Below are positions 2,620 to 54,292 of a stretch of 64,000 nt of DNA, piece after piece (the first letter of the stretch is position 1; each line of letters starts with the position of its first letter). This stretch comes from Cetorhinus maximus (taxonomy: Eukaryota). The notes beneath the pieces were generated by a model. That model was not told the DNA's origin. It searched no databases and saw only the letters and a list, made by a program, of their open reading frames with translations. The position numbers were made by a program, and so were the translations under genes. Where the stretch lies: contig NC_135892.1 of assembly GCF_964194155.1 (NCBI RefSeq), forward strand, positions 84,940,001-85,004,000, read 5' to 3'.

Positions 2620-5060
2620 AATTTCAGCATGTAGCCCGGATGCTGTATGTTCAACAGGGGGCCCAGCAAAGTGCACGGTTACCGCGATGCATAGCTAGCT
2701 TGGACCTCTTAAAGGCAGCTGTCCCTCTGAAAGAGGAGTTTCACCCATAACAGGAGCGACTGTAACTGTCTCTGGAATACTTGGCTGGAAGGAGAAGAAC
2801 AGCAAATGGAATAACAGGAAAGGGAGAGGGCTCCCATGTTTTCTGATGCATTGTGGGAGACATTCACAATAGAAGTGGAAAGCAAGAAAGATGCCATGTT
2901 CTTGCAAGAGGCTAGGAGACCTTCAAGGTGCACCCTGAGAAAGGAATGGGAGCCAGTTCAATGATCTCAGACGGTGGTCAAGGTCATTGAATGCAACTTC
3001 AAGTGACATCTTCCACCCACCATTTCACCATCATCTCACGCTGCTTAGTCCACTTCATCCCTCATTATCAGCAGCAATCTGAACTCATGCCTAACATTCA
3101 GGTACTCCACCTCACCCCCACACATACCAATGCTGCCAACCTCTCACATCTCACTGCTTTCACATACCTCTGTCGTGTTTGTATAATGATATAAAAACAC
3201 CAATCACTCATAAGGGATTGGGTAAACACATTGTGGGTCCATTTATTAAGGCTAGGCACATGAGAACAGATATACATGGATATAAAGCTTGAAGGCATCA
3301 GAGCTGTGGGTCTGTGCTCTGCTGAAAGAAAAAGCGAGCCTAAATCTGGATCGTATGACACACTCCTTTCTAGTGGTGTCATGCTCCTGTCCCTTAGAGG
3401 CATGTTACAACAACCTCCAGGAGGCACATCACATAAATACATTGCAACAACACACTCACTGACATTCTTCCCTCTTTCTTGCAGGTCTGGAGGACACAGT
3501 GCTCTACATCATGGGGCTGGCTGTGACTGAGGGCATTTCAATCAGCATCACCCGAGAACATTCAGGATGGCTGCGTTTCCCTGCCTGAAACCCTGCCTCA
3601 CCGTTAACCTGTCAGTTGTCATGAAATGCAAGCTGCAGGTGGTGTGACCACAGACTTCCTCCTCTACGTTTTTGCCTTCAGATACCCAAGACCTGCTGCC
3701 TGACCAGACAGTGCAGCTTCATCATGAAAGGTGAAAGCGATACCAGACTTCTGCTGAAGAAGCACTATCACTTTGTCAGACACTTGCAGTAACAGCTCAG
3801 ATACTGGCACTGCACGCACTTTGGAGGGTAGCACAGAGTCAGGATCAACCCATGATGAGCCACTGGGCGGCAGTGGGTCACAGCCAGGCCATAGGGATAG
3901 GGTAGTTCATGTGTCAGCTCATTAGACAAGTTCTGCTGATGAGGCCTCAGATGAGGATTTTGATGGGTTAGTGTACAGGAGAACACTGTTGCTCATGCAC
4001 ACTGAAATTCTTGGTGCATTGGCAGACCTGCCAAAGAGCCTCTTGTTATTGTCAAGGAGCATGGAGGAGTCTTGCTCCAATTTTATATGAGACTTCATGC
4101 AGGGTTTGGAGCCTACCCTTTCCAGTGTGGAAGGGGTGGCTAACTCCATGACACCACTTATGGCCCCGCCCATGCTGCAGCATCTCAGCTTCCATTGTAA
4201 CACAGGCAGAAACCACCCACTACCGCAGTGCTGCAGTGGAGGCTCAGATTGAGGTCATGAGAGCAGTGCTTGGTGCTATGCAGGCTCAGACTGCTCTCAC
4301 CATGACTGCAGATATCAGTGTTGAAAGAGGGGTATAGGCTCTGACAGCAGTCCAGCAATCTGTCCTCTAACAGATTACCAGGATTACTGAGCAGCTTCAC
4401 CTGGGGAGTGGCAGTGACTCCATGGAGCACAAACCTGCTCTCCTGTCTCAGGATAATAACATTTGTGCTCCCACCATTGCCACTTCACGAGTGCCCTTGT
4501 TGGAGCCTATCAGCCAGTCCAGGCTGCTGCCACCCACGTCAAGGTGGTGCAGTCCAAAGCTGGGCTCATAATGCTTGCAGCTACTCAGGGTTGTCCTGCA
4601 AGGCCACCTGCAATCCCCCCCCACCCCAGTGAAAATCAGCACCATTCCCTTAAAAATCCCAAAAGTTTTGTAAGACTGCTCCGATAACACAGAACATAAC
4701 ACTTCCATTAGCTTTACACCAACAAAAGTAAATCAAAAGCACCTCACCTGGATGTGGTTGACCCTTTAAATAGTGCTAGAGCTCAGGGGAGAGCAGTTTG
4801 TGAGGTTAGGGGTTGGTTGTGTGGAGAGGGGCCTGGTGCATTTGAGCACGTGTTCAGCTGGGAGTGATTAAGAGAGGGTGTTACCAGATCCCTGAGGTCC
4901 AAAATGGCAAATCGGCTTTAGAGGCTGTTAGAAGATTATGACCTGCCCGCTCTGCATGCTTCTGGTGCACACACGGCATGCTCACGCTAACTTGTCAGTG
5001 TGTGCCCTGTAGGCTGCTCGAAAAGTGGCTGAAGTGTTGCGGCCTTGATTTTTTGAATTT
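2620..5060 (+). mobile_element. Old, decayed Harbinger element carrying a Myb/SANT-gene relic
   Basis: ~2807-2985 translates as ME*QERERAPMFSDALWETFTIEVESKKDAMF...RKEWE...FNDL (Myb/SANT-like N-terminus); ~3950-4080 gives SDEDFDGLVYRRTLLLMHTEILGALADLPKSLLLLSRSMEES (coiled-coil C-terminus); TTTAAA boxes near both ends as in the intact copy. Confidence 0.6.
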
Positions 5061-7625: not shown

Positions 7626-9177
7626 CAGGTATCTCCCGTTTAAAGCGTGTTCTAATGAGACATTTCGTTTTAGCGTGGTTTGTAAATTAACAATGCTCCC
7701 CAAAAATCGCTGCCTCCATTTTCATTTTAGCATGCTCAACCTTTGAAAACTAACTACCACTTCCCTCCCCAGCCCTCCCACCACCCTCCTGCTTACCACC
7801 TCCCTCCCTGACCCTCCTCACCGCCTCCTCCCCTCGACCCTCACACTCACCGCCACCCTCCTGCTTACCACCTCCCTCCCTGACCCTCCTCACCACCTCC
7901 TCCCCTCGACCCTCCCGCTCACCACCACCCTCCTGCTTACCACATCCCTCCCCGACCCTCCTCACCGCCTCCTCCCCTCGACCCTCACACTCACCGCCAC
8001 CCTGCTGCTTACCACCTCCCTCCCCGACCCTCCTCACCACCTCCTCCCCTCAGCCCTCCTGCTCACCGCCACCCTCCTGCTTACCACCTCCCTCCCCGAC
8101 CCTCCTCACCGCCTCCTCCCCTCAGCCCTCCCACTCACCGCCACCCTCCTGCTCACCACCTCCCTTCCTGACCCTCCCACTCACCGCCTACCCCCCGATC
8201 CTCCTGCTTACCACCTTCCCTCGATCCTCCTGCTCACCACCTCCCTCCCCGACCCTCCTGCTCACCGCCTCCTCCCCTCAGCCCTCCCACTCAGCGCCAC
8301 CCTCCTGCTCACCACCTCCCTTCCCGACCCTCCTGCTCACCTCCTTCCCTCGATCCTCCTGCTCACCGCCTCCCTCCCCGACCCTTCTCCTCACCGCCTC
8401 CCTCCCCGGCCCTCCTGCTCACTGCCTCCTCCCCTCAACCTTCCCACTCACCGCCTCCCCCGCCATCTCTCCTCCTCACCGCCTCCCCCCGATCCCCCCC
8501 CACTCACCGCCTCCCCCCGACCTTCCCACTCACTGCCTTCCTCCCCGACCCTCTTGTTTGCCACCTTCCTCCACAACCCTCCCGCTCTCTGCTTCCCTCC
8601 CTTACGGTACAATCTGCGCTTTTCACCACCCACCTTGCTCCCTCCCTCCAACCCACTCCCAGCTCCTCTCTCTCCCTCATTTGCTTCCTCCCTTTCGCTG
8701 CCCCTGTCCCGAGCCCTGGCTCACATAAAGTGTTCCGGAGAGCGAAGCGGTGAGCAGGAGAGGGAAGTGGCAAGCGGGAATGTTGGGTAGGGAAGCAGTG
8801 AGCGGGAGAGTCAACAAGCAAGAGAGGCGCTGATCGGGAGGATTGTTAGAGTTGGTGAACGGAAGGGTTGGTAAGGTCGGCGAGCGGGAGCATGGGGGGT
8901 GGGAAGTGGAGAGTGGGAGGGGCGGCTAACAAGGGAGGTAGCGAGCTGGGGGCAATTAAAAAGAGCTGGTAAGTTATTAAGAGTTCTTAAGTTATTAAAA
9001 GTTAGTAAGAAGATCTCTGGGCCAGTTAGGTTCAAGGCAGCCAATAGATTTTTAATGTAAAAATCACAGGTCAGGTACGTAACCCATCCTTATGGTTTCT
9101 TATGGGAAAGCGATTTTTGTTTAGCAGGCTGATTTTTTTTTAGAAATGCACAAGGAGTTCTAACAAGAGACAGTTGC
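7626..9177. mobile_element. Tigger/pogo-like non-autonomous DNA element inserted at a TA inside the SINE
   Basis: Begins TA|CAGGTATCTCCCGTTT; degenerate inverted end ...AACAAGAGACAGTTG|CA; cleanly interrupts the SINE at AAATA^GTGC. Confidence 0.55.
7765..8560. repeat. C-rich minisatellite, ~72-bp unit decaying to ~24-bp subunits
   Basis: Repeated CCTCCTGCTTACCACCTCCCTCCCCGACCCTCCTCACCGCC...; 24-aa periodicity in the minus-strand ORF 7750-8040. Confidence 0.9.
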
Positions 9178-9178
9178 A

Positions 9179-9375
9179 GTGCATTGGGATCTTTTACATT
9201 CACTTGAGAGGCAGTCAGGGCCTCAGTTTAACTTTGCATTCAAAAGGCAGCATGCCCTCTGTACTGCACTGGAGTCCCAGCCTTGATTTTTGTGCTGAAG
9301 CCCTGGAGTGGAATCTTTAACCCACAATTTTGGCTCAGAGACGAAAATGCTTCTACCCGAGCCACTGCTGATACT
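9179..9375 (-). mobile_element. SacSINE1/DeuSINE-like SINE, 5' half with tRNA head
   Basis: GGGATCTTTTACATTCAC...GTACTGCACTGGAG...AACCCACAA...GAGCCACTGCTGATAC, contiguous with 7379-7625. Confidence 0.75.
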
Positions 9376-9734
9376 GAATGAAACTGAGACATTAACTGCA
9401 TGAGACAGTAACTTAATAGAGAGAAGAATAACATAAAGTCCACAATCCAGAATTTAAGAGGGAATGGGATGGATGAGTCTTTAAATGGATGGTCCAGCAT
9501 TGCTGGCTGTGTTCCCAAAGGAATTGTGTGCACCACCATTTTTAACTGCTGGGACTTCAGAGGCGTCAGCACTGCCCACTGTAGACAGGGTGAGGCCTCA
9601 GTAATATATTCAAAAGTCTGGGTTTGCTGAAATAATTTGGATATCAACACAATTTTAACCTTGGGTAATGCAAGTTGCACGCAGTGCAGGACCAGCAGGT
9701 GAGAGACACAAGATATTGATACATTGGACAGTGA

Positions 9735-23279: not shown

Positions 23280-23491
23280 GATTTGAAGTGGTGGTGAGCA
23301 GAGCCTGTAGTGAGTTTATAAGCTGAGCTGTTACAGTGATCAAATCGAAACACCCTTCACTCCAGGTGGGCTGAATAATGATAAGGCTGTAGAATGTTCA
23401 TTGGTTGTTCTAAATAAGTAAAAGCAGTGCACCTGATTAACTGTTCTGACACATTCCACAGCCTAAAGGTTAAGCAATGCCAATTTTCAAA

Positions 23492-23634
23492 CTCTTTCGA
23501 GTTATCAACAGTCACAGATTGCAACTCTTTCGAGTACAATCACAGTTCTTGGTTTTCCGGGAGTGGGACATGAACCCACAACCCTCTGATTCAAAGGCAA
23601 GGGTGCTATGAACTGAGCCACAGCTGACACCTCT
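23492..23634 (-). mobile_element. Short tRNA-derived SINE, copy A, with 15-bp TSD
   Basis: A-box TGGCTCAGTTCA and B-box GGTTCATGTCC on the minus strand; ATGCCAATTTTCAAA at 23477-23491 and 23635-23649. Confidence 0.9.
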
Positions 23635-25290
23635 ATGCCAATTTTCAAAGTGCACTGAAGTTACACACATAACAAATTGCATTTGCTAAATCAATGGATC
23701 CCTGAATATAGTGAACCACCATTTTTGGTTCAGCAAACATAGCTGAGAAAACACTGCTTCATCTCACTCCGATGTCTTTAACGGAAGAAAAAAGAATTCA
23801 GTTACTTACGCTGCAGCAATTTTTTTATAGTTATGAAGGAGTAGGGAAGGAGTGAGGCTGACAATTCCAAATTATCTCACTAGAACACCCTTCTTCCACT
23901 TCTGTATCGCAGCAGCTCCATCAACCCCACACCCACCCCTCCATGCAGCAGCATATCCCCTAACATCATTAACAATGCCACAGGAGATCTGCTAAAAGAT
24001 GTATAAAATGGTACATTCAGCGTTTGTTATATCCATCACATCTGACATGTGTGTGAAAGTTTATTTTGCGCTGCAGTCAAAAGTATACAAAACTAATCAT
24101 TTACCATGTACAAAGAAGAAGAAAGCACTGGTATTGACACAGGAATCAGAGGAGACCCAATAGCACTTGTTGTGGTCCAGCCAGATTTGACGATAGATGA
24201 CTACACTTGATACGCATCACTTGCACAAAATTGGCTAAAGTTTCATGTTCATAAAGCAGCAATAACTCAAATCCGAAGTGGTAGGGGAACTTGTAAATTA
24301 AAAATAAGGAAAACTTGAGCTCAAAGTTGTCAATGAGTAAGTAGCAGAAAACTAAACGATTGCTCAATCCTTTTGAGGTTTCTAACCCCAAACTGCTGGG
24401 TCATTAGAAACAAAAAATCTGCCCCACAAGCCATGGTTTGAGCTGAAGTCTTGTATTCTGAAGTATGTTTGGTGTCTTATGCAAAGAGGTGTTTTCTGCA
24501 AGGTAACTTGCAGACACTTTGTTGGGATAAAGATGCTGTAGGCAGTTTTGGTTGTGAATAGAGAAATGCAATTTCTTCTGATGGGAAGTCAGGGCAGATG
24601 ATTTATCAATTTAAAATTCACAGTAAGTACAAGGATTAGAAACAATTTCATTAGAGGGTTGGAGTATGGAATCCTTTGCCAAAGTGAATGATTGATGCAG
24701 AGACCATTGCACCTTTTAAAGGGAAATTGGATAAATATTCAAAGAAGATGATGATATGAGGGTTATTGTGGGGGGGGGGGGGGAGATCATGGGCTATGCA
24801 ACACGGGCAGGTAAATGGAGTGAAGGTTAATTGGCCAGTCAGCGTGAAATCGTGGTCCGGAGCCAATCGCAGTCGGTGGTCCATTTCATGGCCACTCTCA
24901 CACCCGCCAAAGATAAGATTCAGGCCTATAAAATATTATTTATTACATGGTATAATGCTCCTGTTTAATGTAGCACATTTGGCAACATTCTCTTACAATG
25001 CCTGGAAAGATTTGCTAGTCCTAATTTTAGATGGGAAAAAAGGAGTACATTCACTTGGCTTAATTATTCCTGACTATTTTCATGATTCATTGGAATTGGA
25101 AATTTGAAGCAGCAACGAGAGATCAGGTCGTCTTTTTTGGTGGGGGGGGGCGGGATGGATGGAGAGGAGCAGCAAAGTCACTCTTTACGTAGAAAAGGTA
25201 GTGACAATGCACTAATCAGTACCTCACACTCAAAATTTAAACAAAGCCATAATTGGCTGAATGGAAGAAGCATTATTTTTATAATGCAAA

Positions 25291-27499: not shown

Positions 27500-29179
27500 A
27501 AGCTGCCAATGGGAGGAAACAGGCTGTCCCCAAATTTAGCCACACCTCCATCAGACGTGTGCTGGATGCATTGGAGGCCCAGCGTGAAGTCCTGTACCCG
27601 CGCTCTGGGCAAAGACCAGCAAGCAAGGTCACCAATCAAGCATGGGAGGCGGTGGCAGTGGTGGTCAGCGCCAACGCCGTGCAAAAGAGGACAGCCACCC
27701 AGTGTTGAGAGCAGACGAATGATCTCCTCCATTCCGCCAGGGTAAGTCACTCTTCTCATAACTCTCCACTCACACACTCAAACCTATCACACATCCACAG
27801 GGATCTCACTCACTGACAGTTCAACGGACATCACCATTCATTCTCTCAAACACACCTTCATCTGCCCTGCAGATCATGTCCTTATCCCATACATGGCACC
27901 ACTCACCACCCACACATGCCAGGCATACTCATCATCTGGTCTGGCAGGCATCCTGCTTACACTCTCTCCATCTCTATTTATGCAGGGCAAGCTGGCACAC
28001 AACAAGAGGGAGAGGTCGCAGACTGGTGGAGGAATGCCCAACATCAATGTCCCCACAGACTTTGAAAATAGAGTTATCCAGCTGGCCCATGACGATCTGG
28101 ACCGTCCCTGTGCTGACGGTGAGGCCTGCACTTCTCAACCAAGTGAGGATCCAGTAGTGCAACATCCATCAGACAACCATGCTGTGAGTGATGTGCCCCA
28201 GTTCCGCAGGCCCCTGCCATGCACTAATTATCTCTCCTTGCTTTCTTAGGCACATCTGGAACCAGCCGAGGGCATCCATAATCCAGGTCCTCGGCTCAAG
28301 AAGAACCTGATGACACCCTAATTGAAGACCTGTCACAGTGCTCATCCACACCCTGCACCAGCGCAGAGGCACACACCTCGCTGGGACCTAGTTCTAGAGC
28401 AGCCTCGGGGTCACAAACCGGTAAGCACATTGCAGTCTTATCTACAGTAAGCAGCAGCAGGAACTTTCCAGGTTTTCGGCACTCGGAGGACAGCTGGAGG
28501 CCAGAAGCCTGCTGAGTCCAAGGTAGATGAGGAGCCTCTGAACTCCGTCATACCTCAGTTGCTGGATCTGCAAAGGCAAGCTCGGGAACATCAGGAAGGG
28601 ATGTCTGCTGCGCTCCTCAGATTGCAAGGCATGATGGAGGAGTCTGTCTGCCTTCACTCTGAGGTGATAGCGCCAGTGTGCCAATGCACTGAGGTCAACA
28701 CTGGTAGGATGGCGGCTGCCATGGTGACCTGCACTGCTGCGTAGGCTGAACTCTATTGCTGACACCATAGTTGGCCTCCAGCATTGTCAATGCAAGAGGG
28801 GTGCAGGGCAGCTTGATCTCACTCCTGCTTTCCCTTCTCCTCAAGAAGTGAGGGAGGGGTCCTCGGGCACCCATAGGGAGGAGGTTCAGCAGGTTCACAC
28901 ACCGGGGCCATCCACCTCCGGGAGTGTCCAGCCCAACGATTCCGCTCTTCCTGTGACCCCAGCAGCTCCAGCTCCACAGGCCGAGGAGGGTGCCACTGCC
29001 ACACAGCAGGACCCCAAAAGCAGGCCGGGACCCTCCAGTTCTCAGCCCTCCAGAGGACACCCATCAAGGTCAGCACAGACAGTAGGATGTAGCAGTCAGC
29101 AGGCAGCCTCCACCTCCGCTGTGGATGTCAGGGAGCACCAAGGCACAATGGCAGGGTTAGAAAGGTTAAGAAGATGTAG
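27500..29179 (+). pseudogene. Harbinger Myb/SANT-like DNA-binding protein, 3 exons (to 27741; 27986-28142; 28250-29179)
   Basis: PKFSH..LDALEAQREVLYP..AWEAVAVVVSANAVQKRTATQC*; donor AGG|GTAAGT; acceptor TTTATGCAG|; exon 2 KLAHNKRERSQTGGG; donor AA|GTGAG; acceptor CTTTCTTAG|; upstream ATTTAAA box and downstream AATAAA (~29233); stops and frameshifts. Confidence 0.85.
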
Positions 29180-29873
29180 TTGCACAGCTTGGCCATGGGT
29201 GTTAATCACTTGTACATAATGTTCACTATTGTAAATAAATGCCCAAGAATGTCTCCCTGCCTGTGGCTCCTTGTTATGATGAGCAGTGTTTGTGTCACTC
29301 AGATGTGAAACCTTGGTTTCTGCACAAGATAAAGGCAGGTGTCTCAGTCCAGGGCCTCTTCCCTGTGCAGTGTGTAACCTTCAGACCAAAGTGATGATCC
29401 AGTTTCACACTCACTGGACACATCAGTGATTCCTGCCCCTCGATGGTGCTTGTCATTGCTGCCAGAATGTCGTGGGCAGGTGTCACAGAGTTCCGTCATT
29501 CTCTCTGTGTGCTCTCGGCACCTTTAAAGTGGGGCTGGCCCCCATCTCTTCAGCATCTGTGATCGGTGACCAGCTGTGCTCCTGAAGGGGTCAGTTGCTA
29601 AAGGCTGACAAAGGATCCATGATATGACCCTGATCATGGTGTGCAAGCAAGCTGCCCGCAGCCAGACAGGATTCAGACATTCACAGAGGCAATGTGAAGA
29701 TTTTTGGATTGTCCTCACTGCATGTCATGATCATCCTCCTGAAATCAAGTGACTATTAGAGCCTCCACTACGTCTCCGTGACATGAGCCCAAGCACTGAG
29801 GGTATGTGCGCTGCTATCAGCCACACAGGAGTCAAACATTCACAGATGCAAGATAAGGATATCAGGCCTGACC

Positions 29874-31085
29874 TCATTGCATCTCGTCATCATCCTCCAT
29901 GAATCTTGCGGCTATGAGGGCCTCCCGAGTGCACCTGCCTCGTCTGGCAGTCTCATTGACGACATCAACTTCATTACCATCATCCCCTTCAATGGCCTGC
30001 TCATTGGAGGAGATGTGCAGCTCTTCCATCTCCTCCTTAGCCAGGTACTCTCCCCTGTTGCAGAGCCAGGTTGTGGAGTGTGCAGCAAGCAATGATGATG
30101 CACAACACCCTCGGTGGATTGTATTGCAGTGCTACACTGGACCTGTCAAAGCATCAGAACTTCCTGTTCAAAATGCCTATTGTTTGCTCCACCAAAGTGC
30201 AGGTCATGACATGAGCCTCGTTATACCTTCGCTCTGCTGCGTCCGAGGCCACCATACAGGCTTCATCAGCTCTATCCCCTACCCTTGTCCCCGAGGAGCC
30301 AACCCTGCAGCCTCTCTGGACCCTGGAAGACATCAGGGATCTGAGACCTGTTAAGGATGTAGGAGTTGTGAACACTCCCTGGGAATCTTGCGCAGACCTG
30401 TAGAATGCGTTTATGGTGGTCACACGCCAGCTGAACATTCAGCGAGTGGAAGCCCTTGTGGTTGACATGGTTGACTGCTTGTTGCCATGGAGATCTAAGT
30501 GCCATGTAAGTGCAGTCAATGGCACCCTGCACCTGTGGAAAACCAGAGATCCGCGCAAATCCCAACGCTCTTGCTTCCTGGTTTTCCTGATCCTGGGCAA
30601 AAATGCACGAAGTTCTGTGCATTCGCAAAGATGGCATCTGTGACCTCCTGGATACACTTGTGGGTGGAGGCTTGCGAGATCCTGCACAGGTCACTTGTGG
30701 AGCCCTGGAAGGAGCCATTGGCCTAAAAATTGAGTGCCATAGTCACTTTCATGGCCACTGGCAGAGGATGCCCTCCATGACCCCGTGGCGCCAAATCCTG
30801 AAGCAGGTGGCATATGTGACCGTCCAGTTCCCTAGACATGCGTGGTCTTTGGCAACACTGGTTCTCGGTCATCTGCAGAAATGACAAGCACCGTCTATAG
30901 ATCCTGGTGGTGTTCCTACGAGCGGCGACTCTCTGTGAATCTTCAGTTGCGTGCTCAGCAGGCCCTGCCACCCCTCTATCTTGAGGGAAGTGCCCCTCCC
31001 TTTGCCGAGTCTGGCACCTCCACCACATTCTTCTTTTCTTGTCTCTGTAAGCCATGAGGCTTACCGCTAAATCACCAGGCTCCAT
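29874..31085 (-). pseudogene. Harbinger DDE transposase (HARBI1-like), frameshifted
   Basis: MEPGDLA start; motifs GFPQVQGAIDCT, KGFHSLNVQLACD, ARFPGSVHNS, WLLGDKG, YNEAH..T..LVEQTIGIL; acidic C-terminus ...FMEDDDEMQ*. Confidence 0.92.
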
Positions 31086-31103
31086 GATCCTGATGCTCTC
31101 CTC

Positions 31104-31992
31104 CTGCAGGATGAAAGAGAGCGACACGCGGGTTAGCATTCGTGTCCTAAGAACTCTCTTGGTTAAGCCTGGAGGCCACTACACGTATGCAGGAGAGTGC
31201 TGGCCATCATTTGGATGGCCAGTGTGTACTGTGCTGATTGGCTGCCTGAAACCCTACCCACCTCCGTCCCGCTCCACTGGACCAATTGGCAGCAGCTTCA
31301 GCCACTGGACTGTAAGATGTGCTCTCAGCTCGGGTGCAGGCATTCTCCTATCCCGCATTGCAAGCCTGTGCTGTAAGCCTGAACCATTAGGGATACTGGT
31401 CCAAACCTGAATAAAGACATTGCAATGGTCTGTGAACACCTCCACCAGTGACTGCGCCATGGCCTCCTTTCGCAAGGGGATTCTACAACTTGCCCAGTCG
31501 GCCAATTGTTCTGCTGCCCCCTAAAATGTACATTAATCTGCAGTCTGCACCTGAGGGTTAAAGGATCTGGAGCAGTTGGTGGCACTTTCATGCTTTTGCG
31601 TTGCTTGAGTGGACAGAAAAGCATCAAAGGCCTGACTCCAAGCATGTCACTGGAACTGCAGCTGAACAGTCTCAGCTGCGGAAGAATGCTCACTTTCGAC
31701 AAGCTTTTCCAAGTGTGTGGCCACTTCCCTCCCTCTCCCCCAAACCCTTTCCCCACCACCACCCCGCCCCCAGCATGTGCTTGTGTACTTCCGTCAGCCT
31801 GTGCTGCCTTGTCCCCCACCTGCACCCCTCGCCCCAGCCTGACCCACACTGAAGCCCTTGCCCCGGCAATAAATTGATATCCAGCCAGCAAAAAGCAGGT
31901 TGTCTGTACCAGCGCCTCCCTCGCCTGAACGTGCTTCCTCGATGCCCTACGGGCGAGGCTTGTGAGCACTGCGCAGGTTTGTGTGCACTCAC
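31104..31992 (-). other. Predicted 5'-UTR intron of the transposase gene
   Basis: Donor GAG|GTGAGT at 31993/31992 about 40 nt downstream of a TTTAAAA box; branch point GCTAAC plus pyrimidine tract and CAG acceptor at 31104, conserved in the second copy (53094). Confidence 0.65.
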
Positions 31993-36987: not shown

Positions 36988-38636
36988 CTAGTCATGGACA
37001 GAAGCAAAGTACAAATACAACAAGACTCAAGCAGATGTACTTGGCTAAATTCTGATCTGCCCATTATTTTTGCTATACATACATAGGAAGGAAACAGAAA
37101 TCTCTTTCAGCTAACTGCATTAGAAATTATACCTAAAATAACTCATAACCTACTGAGCATACACATAAAAGATTAAAATGCTAGGTCCTTGAATTTAAAA
37201 CAGCAGATCTGATATATATATGCCCCATGTATAATCTGCACTTGCATATCGTATTTATTTCCCCCGCTCTAAAAATTGCCACTTTTACAGTAGTCATATT
37301 CTGCACACCCTCTTTTTGAAACGTGCATTGTAAGTTAACAAATATTTATTAATCTTTTTCAAACATTACAAAAGATGCTTTAAGTGTTGCTATATGTTAG
37401 CTATACTGTGACAAATGAAGCATTACAATCCTAAGATTAAATAAGAAACATTTAAGCAACATTAAGTCCAAGGTACTGTTGTACAATGACAAGCTCACTC
37501 ATTCATGCCAAAGCTGAGGAATTCTTCAAAGTTGTTGCAATAACTGATCATCACAGGAGTTATACTGCAGATGAAAACACTGATTCATCTCTGTGATATG
37601 CCTTTGCATTTTGACGGTGTTGATTGCTTTTTGCACAAGCCAGCAGCTTATTTCCCAATCTACCCACTTTTCTTTGGATTACATTGAGTCTATCTTCTGG
37701 AAGGACATATGAGCGATTTGTCCTGCCATTCTGATCCCATTTCTTGAATTTGTTCATGTTAAACTTACAAATGGTTGATTTGATCCCTTCTGAGGAGCCT
37801 CTACCACTTTCATTGCTAATTACAGCCATTTCTCCTGATGCATTAGGAATAATGGTTCCTCTGAACTATTTTCATTCACATTATATTTTCGATCTATTTT
37901 CCAGTAAAACACATTCACCTTGCAGCTTCCCATGTGTATTCACTCCATGTTGCAGGAGATACATTACATGTAAGTGCCTGTTGTATACAATATATTGTAA
38001 AAATATTCACACGCAAACCCGATATTTGCAAAACTGAGAAAATCTGTGCCAGGAATATCTGGCAGTCAAAGTCAAGCTGATCCACAGCACAATGAACCGA
38101 TTGCCCAAGTTTGCAAATTCAGCTTATTTCTATAATTAGCACAAATTCCCAGCACAGCTTTAGTTGGAAGTTAGGTTAGCCGGAGGTGCGCAAAATGTCT
38201 AGTTCAAATTTAAAGGGAAGTGCCCATTTAGCAAGTTACATTTTTGAAACACCATGAAGAACACTGGCAAAATAAATAAGTTCTATACTTAACTCTTTAG
38301 TGTTTTGCAGTGGCATGCTTATAATGCTTGCACAACCATTTACCTTCAACCAGCTATGTCCTCACTTTAAATGCTTTCTTCACTAATACAAAGCAATTTA
38401 CATTTGTGCACGAAAACACCTTTCACCTCCCCCAGAAAGCTTTCAACACTGTTGTGCAGGACCATTGAGGATGCACGCAGTATATTTCTGCAGTCTTGTT
38501 TTGAGAAACATTGTGGTCTTTTGTTGTGAAGGGAAGGTGATAAACATTTGTTTGCTTTCAAAAAGAGGCTGCCTGGCACTTGAAGCTAGCTCGTTAATGT
38601 TCAGTCTATAAAGCTGTAACTTGAGGTAATGATAAA

Positions 38637-38779
38637 GGGAGGTGTCAGCTGTGGCTCAGTTCATAGCACCCTCGCCTTTGAATCAGAGGGTTGTGGGTTC
38701 ATGTCCCACTCCCAGAAACCAAGAACTGTGATTGTACTCGAAAGAGTTGCAATCTGTGACTGTTGATAACTGGAAAGAG
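38637..38779 (+). mobile_element. Short tRNA-derived SINE, copy B
   Basis: Near-identical to the revcomp of 23492-23634; flanked by TTGAGGTAATGATAA. Confidence 0.9.
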
Positions 38780-38794
38780 TTGAGGTAATGATAA

Positions 38795-38941
38795 GGGGAG
38801 GTGTCAGCTGTGGCTCAGTCCATAGCACCCTCGCCTTTGAATCAGAGGGTTGCAGGTTCATGTCCCACTCCTGGAAAAACCAAGAACTGTGATTGTGCTC
38901 AAAAGAGTTGCAATCTGTGACTGTTGATAACTCGAAAGAGT
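38795..38941 (+). mobile_element. Short tRNA-derived SINE, copy C (tandem with B)
   Basis: Second unit, again flanked by TTGAGGTAATGATAA (38780-38794, 38942-38956). Confidence 0.9.
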
Positions 38942-39002
38942 TTGAGGTAATGATAAATGTGGAAATTATAGTGTCATTGCTCCTACATTTGTTGCCAACA
39001 AT

Positions 39003-51965: not shown

Positions 51966-53075
51966 CCTCACCACTGTCATCTCTTCAACGTCCTCCTCAT
52001 CAGGGGAGACGTGCAGGTCTTCCACCTTCTCCTCAGCCAGGTCCTCCCCCCATTGCAGTGCCAGGTTGTGAAGTGCGCATCAAGCAATGATGATGCACGA
52101 CACCCTCGTGTGTTGTATTGCAGTGCTCCTCAGGACCTATTGAGGTACTGAAGCCTCATTTTCAAAATGCCTATCGTTTGCTCCACCAAAGTCTGGGTCA
52201 CAGCAAGAGCCTCATTGTACCGTGGCTCTAATGAAGTTTGAGGCCACCACACAGGTGTCATCAGCCACATCCTCTCTGGGTAGCTCTTGTCCCTGAAGAG
52301 CCAACCCTGCAGACTCTCTGGACCCTGGAAGATGTCAGGGATCTGAGACCTGCTAAGAATGTTGGAGTTGTGAACCATGTGCAGACCTGTAGAATGCGTT
52401 TGTGGTGGTCGCACACTAGCTGAATATTCAGCGAGTGAAAGCCCTGGTGGTTGACATAGTCGACTGCTTGTTGCCACAACAATCAAAGTGCCACATGAGT
52501 CCACTGGATGACACCCTGCAACTGAGATCTGCGCAAATCCCAGCGCTCTTGCTTCCTGGTTTTCCTGTTCCCGGGCGAAATGCACAAAGCTCTGTGCATT
52601 CGCGAAGACAGTGTCCGTGACCTCCTGGGTACACTTGTGCATGAAGGCTTGCGAGATCCCACACAGGTCACCTGTGGAGCCCTGGAAGGAGCCACTAGCA
52701 TAAAAATTGAGCCCCACGGTCACTTTCATGGCCACTGGCAGTGGATGCCCGCCATGTCCCTGTGATGCCAAATCCTGCAGCAGGTGGCATATGTGACTGA
52801 CCATTTCCCTCAACATGAGCAGTTTTCGGAGACCCTGGTTCTCGGTCATCTGCAGGAATGACAGGCTCAGTCTATAGACCCTGGGTCTAGCAATGCGCCT
52901 ACGAGTGATGGCTCTCTGTGGATCTTCAGCTGCCTGCTCAACAGGCCCTGTCACCCCTTCAGCTTGAAGGCTGGTGCTCCTCCCTTTGCCAAGCCTGGCG
53001 CCTCCACCGCTCTCTCCTCCTTCTTTTGGGCTCTTTGTAAGCCATGAGGCATGCCGCTAAATCACCAAGCTCCAT
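51966..53075 (-). pseudogene. Harbinger DDE transposase (HARBI1-like), second copy
   Basis: ORF 52130-52954: GGHPLPVAMKVTVGLNFYASGSFQ..GDLCGISQ...WLFRDKSYP..WLMTP...YNEAL..T..LVEQTIGILKMR. Confidence 0.9.
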
Positions 53076-54292
53076 ATTCGTGATGTTCTCCTCCTGCAGG
53101 ATCAAAGAGAGAGACACCTGGGTTAGCATGGGTGTGCTAAAATCTCTCTCAGTGAAGTCCGAAGGCCCATTTCATGCATGTAGGATGTGCTGGCCACCAC
53201 TTGGATGGCCAGTGTGTAGTGCGCTCATTGGCTGTCCGAAACCCCACCCACCTCTGCCCCACTCCACTTAATCGATTGGCGGCAGCTTCGGCCATTGGAC
53301 TGCATGTTGTGCTCACAGCTCAGGAGCAAGTGCTCTCCTAACCCCCACTGCAAGGCTGCGCTGTTACCTTGAACCATGAAGGATCCTGGTCCAAATCTTA
53401 ATAAAGACATTGCAAGGGGCTGTGAGCGCCTCTGCCAGTGACTGTGCCATGGCCACCTTTCACAAGGGGATTCTACAACTTGCCCAGTCGGCCAATTGTT
53501 CTGCTGCCCCCTAAAACGCACATTAATTTTCAGTCTGCGTCTGAGGGGTGAAAAGTTCTGGAACATTTGGTGGCACTTTCATGCTTTTGGGTTGCTTGAG
53601 TGGGCAGAAAAGCTCCAGAGGCCCGATTCCAAGCATACCAATGGAGCTGCTGCTGAGTGGTCTCAACTGCGGAAAAATGCTCACTTTCGACAGGCTTTTC
53701 CAAGTGCGTTGCTACTTCTTTCACCCCCCCACCAGCCCACCCCACTTCCCGCACACCTTTCCCCTTACCACCCCAGTTTGTGCTTGAGTATTTCCACCTC
53801 GCCGCGGTCTGACCCAGCTCCTTGCCCTGGCATCGCACTGAATGCCAGCCGGGAAAAAGCGACTTGCCTGTGCGAATGACTGACGCTGCCTCCTTGATGT
53901 CCCATGGGCGATGCTCGCCAGTGCTTTGCAAGGTTGAGTGCACTCGCTTCCGGGGTCCCCTCGAAGTTCAGGCTGCCAGGTGCACATCTTTTACAGGCGG
54001 TCGTGAAACACGTCGTTCTGAAGTCACGCCAAATTTGGCGATAAATTTGCCGTGGGGGGCATGATTCCGGTGAGCAGGGCTTATAATGAGATGCAAACGT
54101 ATTAGAATGACGTTCCCGACGTATGGCAGCAGGAAATGTGGCCCACCATTGTCAGTTGGAGCGGATGATCGCAAACTGGCTTCACAACGGCGTAAAAGCG
54201 ATTTTTGGCCTTCTCGTCATATTGTGTTCCCCACCCCCCCAACCCTGCCCCACCACCCGCCATGACGCCAATGGGACCGGAAAATTCCAGCC
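51966..54292 (-). mobile_element. Harbinger element, truncated (transposase side only)
   Basis: Collinear with 29960-32321; right TIR GGAAAATTCCAGCC followed by TAA. Confidence 0.92.

Follow-up and report, generated by a model that had tools for sequence, protein, structure and literature searches.

The window, by which we mean the whole 64-kb stretch of DNA analysed here, contains three copies of a short interspersed element (SINE), two decayed Harbinger DNA transposons and a decayed relative of the SINE head (Table 1). Copy 1 is bounded by two perfect 15-bp repeats; copies 2 and 3 form a head-to-tail pair sharing one 15-bp repeat, which is present three times. As these two copies are a tandem pair, the window has two insertion sites and not three. 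An earlier note on this DNA had reported three near-identical SINE copies devoid of poly(A), with 15-bp target duplications whose start overlaps the element end, and all of this was found again, the overlap being seen both for copy 1 and for the copy 2/3 pair.

Table 1. Features of the SINE copies, their relative and the Harbinger remnants, in window positions.
Feature	Position	Strand	Remarks
Decayed relative of the SINE head, SacSINE1-like	9300-9376	-	Alignment beats all of 1000 shuffles
Copy 1, downstream target-site duplication	23477-23491	-	15 bp; overlaps element end
SINE copy 1	23490-23633	-	144 nt, long form of the younger type; differs once from the majority of 106 units
Terminal hairpin	23490-23503	-	Part common to the SINE and the Tx1 LINE 3' end
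Hairpin 1	23517-23541	-	From folding; where the older short form has its 3' end
tRNA-like head, SacSINE1 type	23558-23633	-	Rfam tRNA model and alignment to 9300-9376
Presumed B-box-like motif	23566-23576	-	Degenerate at one normally invariant A of the box consensus
Presumed A-box-like motif	23609-23620	-	Degenerate, without the GG of the box consensus
Copy 1, upstream target-site duplication	23635-23649	-	15 bp; GTGCAC before it
Decayed Harbinger copy with empty preferred target	about 27560-31231		
Empty preferred target (TACATCTTCTTAAC) in Harbinger transposon	29165-29178	-	
Copies 2/3, first copy of the 15-bp duplication	38621-38635	+	
SINE copy 2	38639-38781	+	97.2% identical to copy 1
Copies 2/3, middle copy of the 15-bp duplication	38780-38794	+	
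SINE copy 3	38798-38945	+	94.6% identical to copy 1
Copies 2/3, last copy of the 15-bp duplication	38942-38956	+	
Decayed Harbinger copy, second in the window	52018-53223		

Between the head of the SINE and the decayed element at 9300-9376, the local alignment score is 72, as against 57 for the best of 1000 shuffles, which bears out the likeness noticed earlier. We take this relative to be SacSINE1-like, following the family label of the earlier note. The Rfam tRNA model matches the SINE head over positions 1-71 with 15 bits (E 2.4), under the gathering score of 29, and this weak tRNA match was obtained instead of any snRNA match in the Rfam search. The 5' start of the element is sharp and captured read-throughs stop at T-runs (see below), both of which are signs of RNA polymerase III; a Pol III origin of the SINE RNA is, judging from these features, probable, although both box-like motifs are degenerate and the tRNA match stays under the threshold.

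Folding recovered both tail hairpins (z = -1.98 for the tail and -2.84 for the whole element). Across 54 tails, 89.2% of the cells of the two hairpins are paired as against 27-43% when they are slid, hairpin 1 reaching 93.7% and hairpin 2, below it, 81.8%. One pair of hairpin 1 is altered on both sides in 11 of the 54 tails. The two-sided change may represent a single event. A GAAA tetraloop is not required. Among variants of the LINE presented below, the stem is constant and the loop, mostly AAAA, changes in letters and in length. A hammerhead ribozyme was also considered and rejected, the element having no stem II on inspection and no Rfam match to such a ribozyme.

Genome-wide, a 23-mer of the head has 12,640 exact matches and a 35-mer of the tail 5,003, with 0 for the reversed control in both cases. 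This 144-nt non-coding sequence is thus an interspersed, high-copy element. At loci selected by their head, divergence from the majority head is 1.5% for the younger type (35 units) and 3.8% for the older one (26 units). The SINE loci that we examined lie nearly all on contig C1 and some are members of one array; overlapping loci (L015, L017 and L029) were left out. Target duplications were present at 80 of the 123 free SINE sites and 65 of these 80 were scored at 13-16 bp, a length inflated by a base or two through chance extension. The other 43 sites have no duplication, and 26 of the 123 hold 5'-truncated copies. The duplication is absent in 22 of the 26 5'-cut copies and present in 76 of the 97 full-length ones (P = 6e-9), an association that suggests two routes of 5' joining. 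A search for distant duplications at the 27 duplication-less sites considered brought up one segmental repeat besides three 10-mers of chance level, and no LINE-like loose end was found at the head/tail border among the reads listed. At one locus (L069), a segmental repeat has SINE copies in two of its units, and one of these copies directly precedes a tRNA-like sequence. In a sequencing run of a second organism (X5), 9 of 10 sampled words were present, which we mention as a lead only.

We found an autonomous element with the same 3' end by a search of the genome for reverse-transcriptase (RT) families, in which one young LINE, present in 7.1-7.5-kb tandem arrays, dominates. It has two ORFs: ORF1 of about 717 aa with a weak zinc-knuckle match (E 0.009), and ORF2 of 1296 aa with an APE endonuclease and an RT. 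ORF2 is identical to that of Xenopus Tx1L at 645 of 1300 positions (50% over 100% of the length), and its match to human L1 ORF2 is far weaker. Full-length copies form head-to-tail arrays, for example at G000:C1:219562000-219599999 (L101-L104), many with a 1303-codon frame open, and the 5' UTR includes a long CTG-rich repeat.

The 3' UTR of this LINE is 130 nt long, without poly(A), and closes with the ACTC/GAGT stem that also ends the SINE; a 31-mer from it has 1,107 exact matches in the genome. What the two elements have in common is the terminal 13-15 nt or so only. The stem motif without poly(A) ends 56 of 60 LINE loci, in a table from which L132 and L229 were dropped since their match is not a LINE end, in which L236 and L250 have variant ends and some loci share an array. 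TTAC comes next in 54 of these 56 ends. Directly after the end we found the start of a SINE in 16 cases, where chance would give about 1e-4 each, the start of another LINE in 6 and Harbinger flank in 9. Target duplications of 12-16 bp were present in 9 of 21 testable LINE ends. Folding of the 3' UTR as a whole showed no gain over shuffles (z = +1.4), and the terminal hairpin is absent from the best fold. The terminal motif is missing from other L1-type RT loci (L148-L151, 28-36% identity), bar one two-mismatch match on the opposite strand of L149. Taken at the level of sequence, these data indicate that the partner of the SINE is probably the Tx1L-like LINE. They support the earlier proposal of a recently active SINE mobilised by none of the local CR1, L2 and RTE elements.

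The LINE has its preferred site in a Harbinger transposon, between the two ORFs. In L105, whose flank is homologous, one of these ORFs encodes a transposase (DDE_Tnp_4 match with E 6.6e-31); the second has no Pfam match and could be called Myb-like by position only. Nine of 121 SINE loci occupy the Harbinger position of the LINE, with 4 of 28 among older SINEs and 5 of 93 among younger ones (P = 0.21). Outside Harbinger, L120 and L127 are LINE insertions at one position of another repeat with the same 12-bp duplication, that is, a second hot spot.

A target-site logo was built using the upstream copy of the duplication as the pre-existing target and defining older units by a hairpin 1 of the A type. 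The motif reads GT(G/C)CA(A/C)C, followed by TTCA. Its upstream part, GT-CA-C, is alike across all three classes. On the other hand, the upstream duplication begins with TA, like that of the LINE, at 18 of 19 older sites and at 1 of 47 younger ones (P = 5e-14). The younger sites start with TTC (25), ATC (9), TTG (7), TTA (3), TGA (1) or TGC (1). The copies ended by ATC constitute a sub-lineage: 10 of 11 carry loop variants, as against 14 of 88 loci (P = 1e-6). Two younger short copies (L174 and L202) end at hairpin 1, and their targets begin with TGCA, which are the bases behind hairpin 1 in the RNA; we infer that hairpin 1 at times still serves as a start for reverse transcription. A common upstream motif combined with lineage-specific first target bases suggests that RNA-DNA pairing picks these bases. 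We lean slightly towards the view that the RNA sets the first target bases, the endonuclease recognising the upstream motif and the 3-4 bases behind the stem pairing with the nicked end.

The tail of about 65 nt had been considered as foreign to the head. Its last 15 nt or so are indeed LINE-like, but the first part continues the SacSINE1-type linker and the hairpin appears to have been doubled later. The older forms L187 and L160 have a longer linker of this type and a single hairpin. Other older forms with both features are L235, L027, L035 and L198, and three of the six sit 3'-most in arrays or beside Harbinger flank. Intermediates carry an A-run and the long forms gain the second hairpin. 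ACAT, with which the Harbinger duplication starts, comes behind hairpin 1 in the older long forms, so that the second hairpin likely comes from read-through into an array neighbour. The older single-hairpin forms would thus tie all but the terminal part of the tail to the SacSINE1-type head, and the SINE seems to have undergone a stepwise switch of partner to Tx1.

Further insight came from SINE-LINE chimeras. In L034/L143, the order is duplication, full SINE, 62-nt piece, truncated LINE (99.6%) and duplication. The 62-nt piece is identical at 62 of 62 positions to the 3' flank of another SINE locus, L033, up to its first T5; since L033 has a duplication of its own, it is the origin of the captured flank. 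This structure likely results from copying, by the Tx1 LINE enzyme, of a read-through Pol III transcript taken up through ligation or a template switch. More generally, 5 of 17 SINE-to-LINE joints end cleanly in T4 or more (P = 8e-5); the other 12 do not, and 2 of these cross an internal T4. We rejected L057 as a read-through case, as its 166-nt extension maps partly to four loci without a SINE and has only a T3. The traced chimera sources lie on the same chromosome C1, about 0.45 Mb apart for L033/L034 and about 2 Mb for L057/L254-L257, which hints at local template capture. U6, a U-ending Pol III RNA, makes chimeras with several LINE clades (PMC4476161), so that SINE-LINE chimeras support the partnership and do not alone prove it.

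Altogether, we propose that this non-coding 144-nt SINE, with its tRNA-like head and hairpin end, is likely made by Pol III and likely copied by a young Tx1L-like LINE having the same end and the same landing sites. Pol III would begin at the sharp 5' end, pass the hairpin and stop at the first T-run of the flank. The Tx1 ORF2 protein would bind the ACTC-loop-GAGT stem, and the Tx1 endonuclease would nick behind GT-CA-C. The 3-4 RNA bases behind the stem could then anneal to the nicked end of the DNA, which would fix the first bases of the target and prime the copying, with a duplication of 13-15 bp as the outcome. The surviving site could be used again and the enzyme could jump onto further Pol III RNAs, giving rise to arrays and SINE-LINE chimeras. 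What has been observed of this scheme is the common end, the motif and the size of the duplication, arrays of mixed composition, a single chimera whose source locus is known, and an association of lineage with target bases. That the terminal hairpin is the recognition signal is a reading we hold with fair confidence. A bolder hypothesis, which we consider evenly balanced, is that the target site is partly programmed by the RNA and inherited: each duplication would provide a 3-4-base guide for the offspring, and the lineages would have drifted from the TAC of the LINE to TTC or ATC with an unchanged enzyme, in a poly(A)-free Tx1 system that recognises a hairpin.

One would wonder whether a protein, and not the RNA, could set the first target bases, the SINE lineages being driven by a number of related Tx1 families whose endonucleases have different preferences. 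The LINE that we found starts its duplications with TAC, matching the older SINEs only, and the greater distance of older units from the majority head would allow different times of activity. As LINE ends are nearly always followed by TTAC and most younger SINEs by TTC, an unseen second Tx1 family could drive the younger SINEs; none emerged among the 150 candidates scored out of 6,099, which look like the same family. However, the upstream motif does not differ between the classes, younger-type SINEs are joined to LINE copies with 98.6-99.7% identity to the reference, no LINE end out of 56 is followed by TTC, and the TGCA targets of the short younger copies also speak against a choice by protein. 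This explanation is possible but rather unlikely in our opinion. A partner among CR1/HER1, L2, RTE or Penelope-like elements is, for its part, very improbable. The first three were described as common in the window and SacSINE1 has an L2-type tail (PMC5499810), but no terminal match to them was found there, in agreement with the earlier note (the terminal 13-mer has one two-mismatch match outside the SINE copies), and end, motif and arrays are common to the Tx1 LINE and the SINE.

Two other objections bear on the recognition signal and on the arrays. The SINE could be a relaxed passenger of an enzyme accepting any structured U-ending Pol III RNA, the common hairpin being a relic of capture and no recognition signal. 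The shortness of the common end, the weak folding of the LINE end and the U6 chimeras with many LINE clades (PMC4476161) fit such a passenger. Free copies nevertheless stop just behind the hairpin even though the RNA continues to a T-run (L033 compared with L034), LINE variants differ in the loop and retain the stem, and the three other SacSINE1-type heads among the examined loci have no hairpin end; we find this reading improbable. As for the arrays, multi-copy sites make up 10 of 81 sites and hold 29 of the first 100 head matches. They could be DNA-level duplications between flanking repeats and not repeated insertions, as illustrated by arrays whose units have additional 5' bases, or variants, in common (L028 and L208), and by a 1.33-kb unit of truncated LINE and SINE present five times in a row (L138-L142, C1:92.056-92.064 Mb). 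Many arrays, on the contrary, mix lineages, short and long forms, LINE pieces and different joints (L046, L047, L137, L218). DNA duplication therefore accounts for some arrays and not for the family, and as a general explanation it is unlikely. Concerning array polarity, the younger unit lies 5' of the older one in about six arrays and the reverse is seen in three. At L105, a LINE insertion has the same 437-bp SINE array (99% identity; 3988-4424 and 8916-9352) on either side, which is much longer than a normal duplication.

Our preferred reading, a Pol III-made SINE copied by the Tx1L-like LINE, would provide a vertebrate SINE/LINE pair of the L1 superfamily operating without poly(A). Intact, near-identical LINE copies and more than 12,000 young SINE copies document priming, target choice and template switching, the switch of partner can be traced step by step, and the young copies could be markers for shark population work. 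If it is true that RNA bases set part of the target, a parasite could leave the safe site of its helper and spread genome-wide, and the system would offer a compact, testable model for site-preferring insertion. No description of this SINE was found in a search of the texts of papers, and a term search of PMC13343379 found no mention of Tx1.

A parallel can be drawn with the crocodilian SINEU-1, -2 and -3, which have been assigned to Tx1-Mar LINEs (Kojima 2015, PMC4494074). Both are cases of a Tx1-partnered SINE with a joint preference for DNA-transposon sites, tandem copies around the duplication and 5' additions through template switch. However, SINEU elements have snRNA (U1/U2) heads, poly(A) tails and no Pol III promoter, whereas the shark SINE has a tRNA-like head and no poly(A). 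In the same source, no LINE with a common 3' end was found for SINEU-1, whereas the shark SINE has its terminal hairpin in common with a LINE. Tx1-9_AMi also inserts into Harbinger elements, about 300 bp from the 5' end and not at the junction of two ORFs as here (PMC4494074). The shark SINE resembles SINEU/Tx1-Mar in its working and is not a member of SINEU. With Xenopus Tx1L, the LINE shares half of its ORF2 residues (UniRef YTX2 record P0004) and site-preferring insertion into a DNA transposon. The target of Tx1L is Tx1D, which is of the piggyBac type (PMC1950540, PMC4494074) and not a Harbinger, and no SINE partner of Tx1L is named in the literature examined.

The SacSINE1 and DeuSINE families of sharks have a related tRNA head and linker, the likeness being fuller in the oldest forms L187 and L160, but the SINE described here has neither the Deu body nor the L2/CR1-type tail (PMC5499810, PMC3747384). 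It stops about 65 nt behind the head and, in a comparison with the local SacSINE1-type copies, departs from them at the linker. From its sequence, it is best described as a tRNA-type SINE derived from SacSINE1 and not a member of it. Stringent LINE/SINE pairs such as UnaL2/UnaSINE and those of the L1 clade in maize and green algae also have a structured common 3' end, presumed to be a recognition signal; here the common end is much shorter, without terminal repeat or poly(A), and belongs to the vertebrate Tx1 clade (PMC3747384). The U6/LINE chimeras provide a precedent for Pol III RNAs joined 5' of truncated LINEs (PMC4476161). Finally, in the read-through annealing of R2Ol, copying begins at a point given by four target bases carried at the end of the RNA (PMC6795142). 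R2Ol has one fixed target, whereas here the bases carried differ from one SINE lineage to another, as do the insertion sites.
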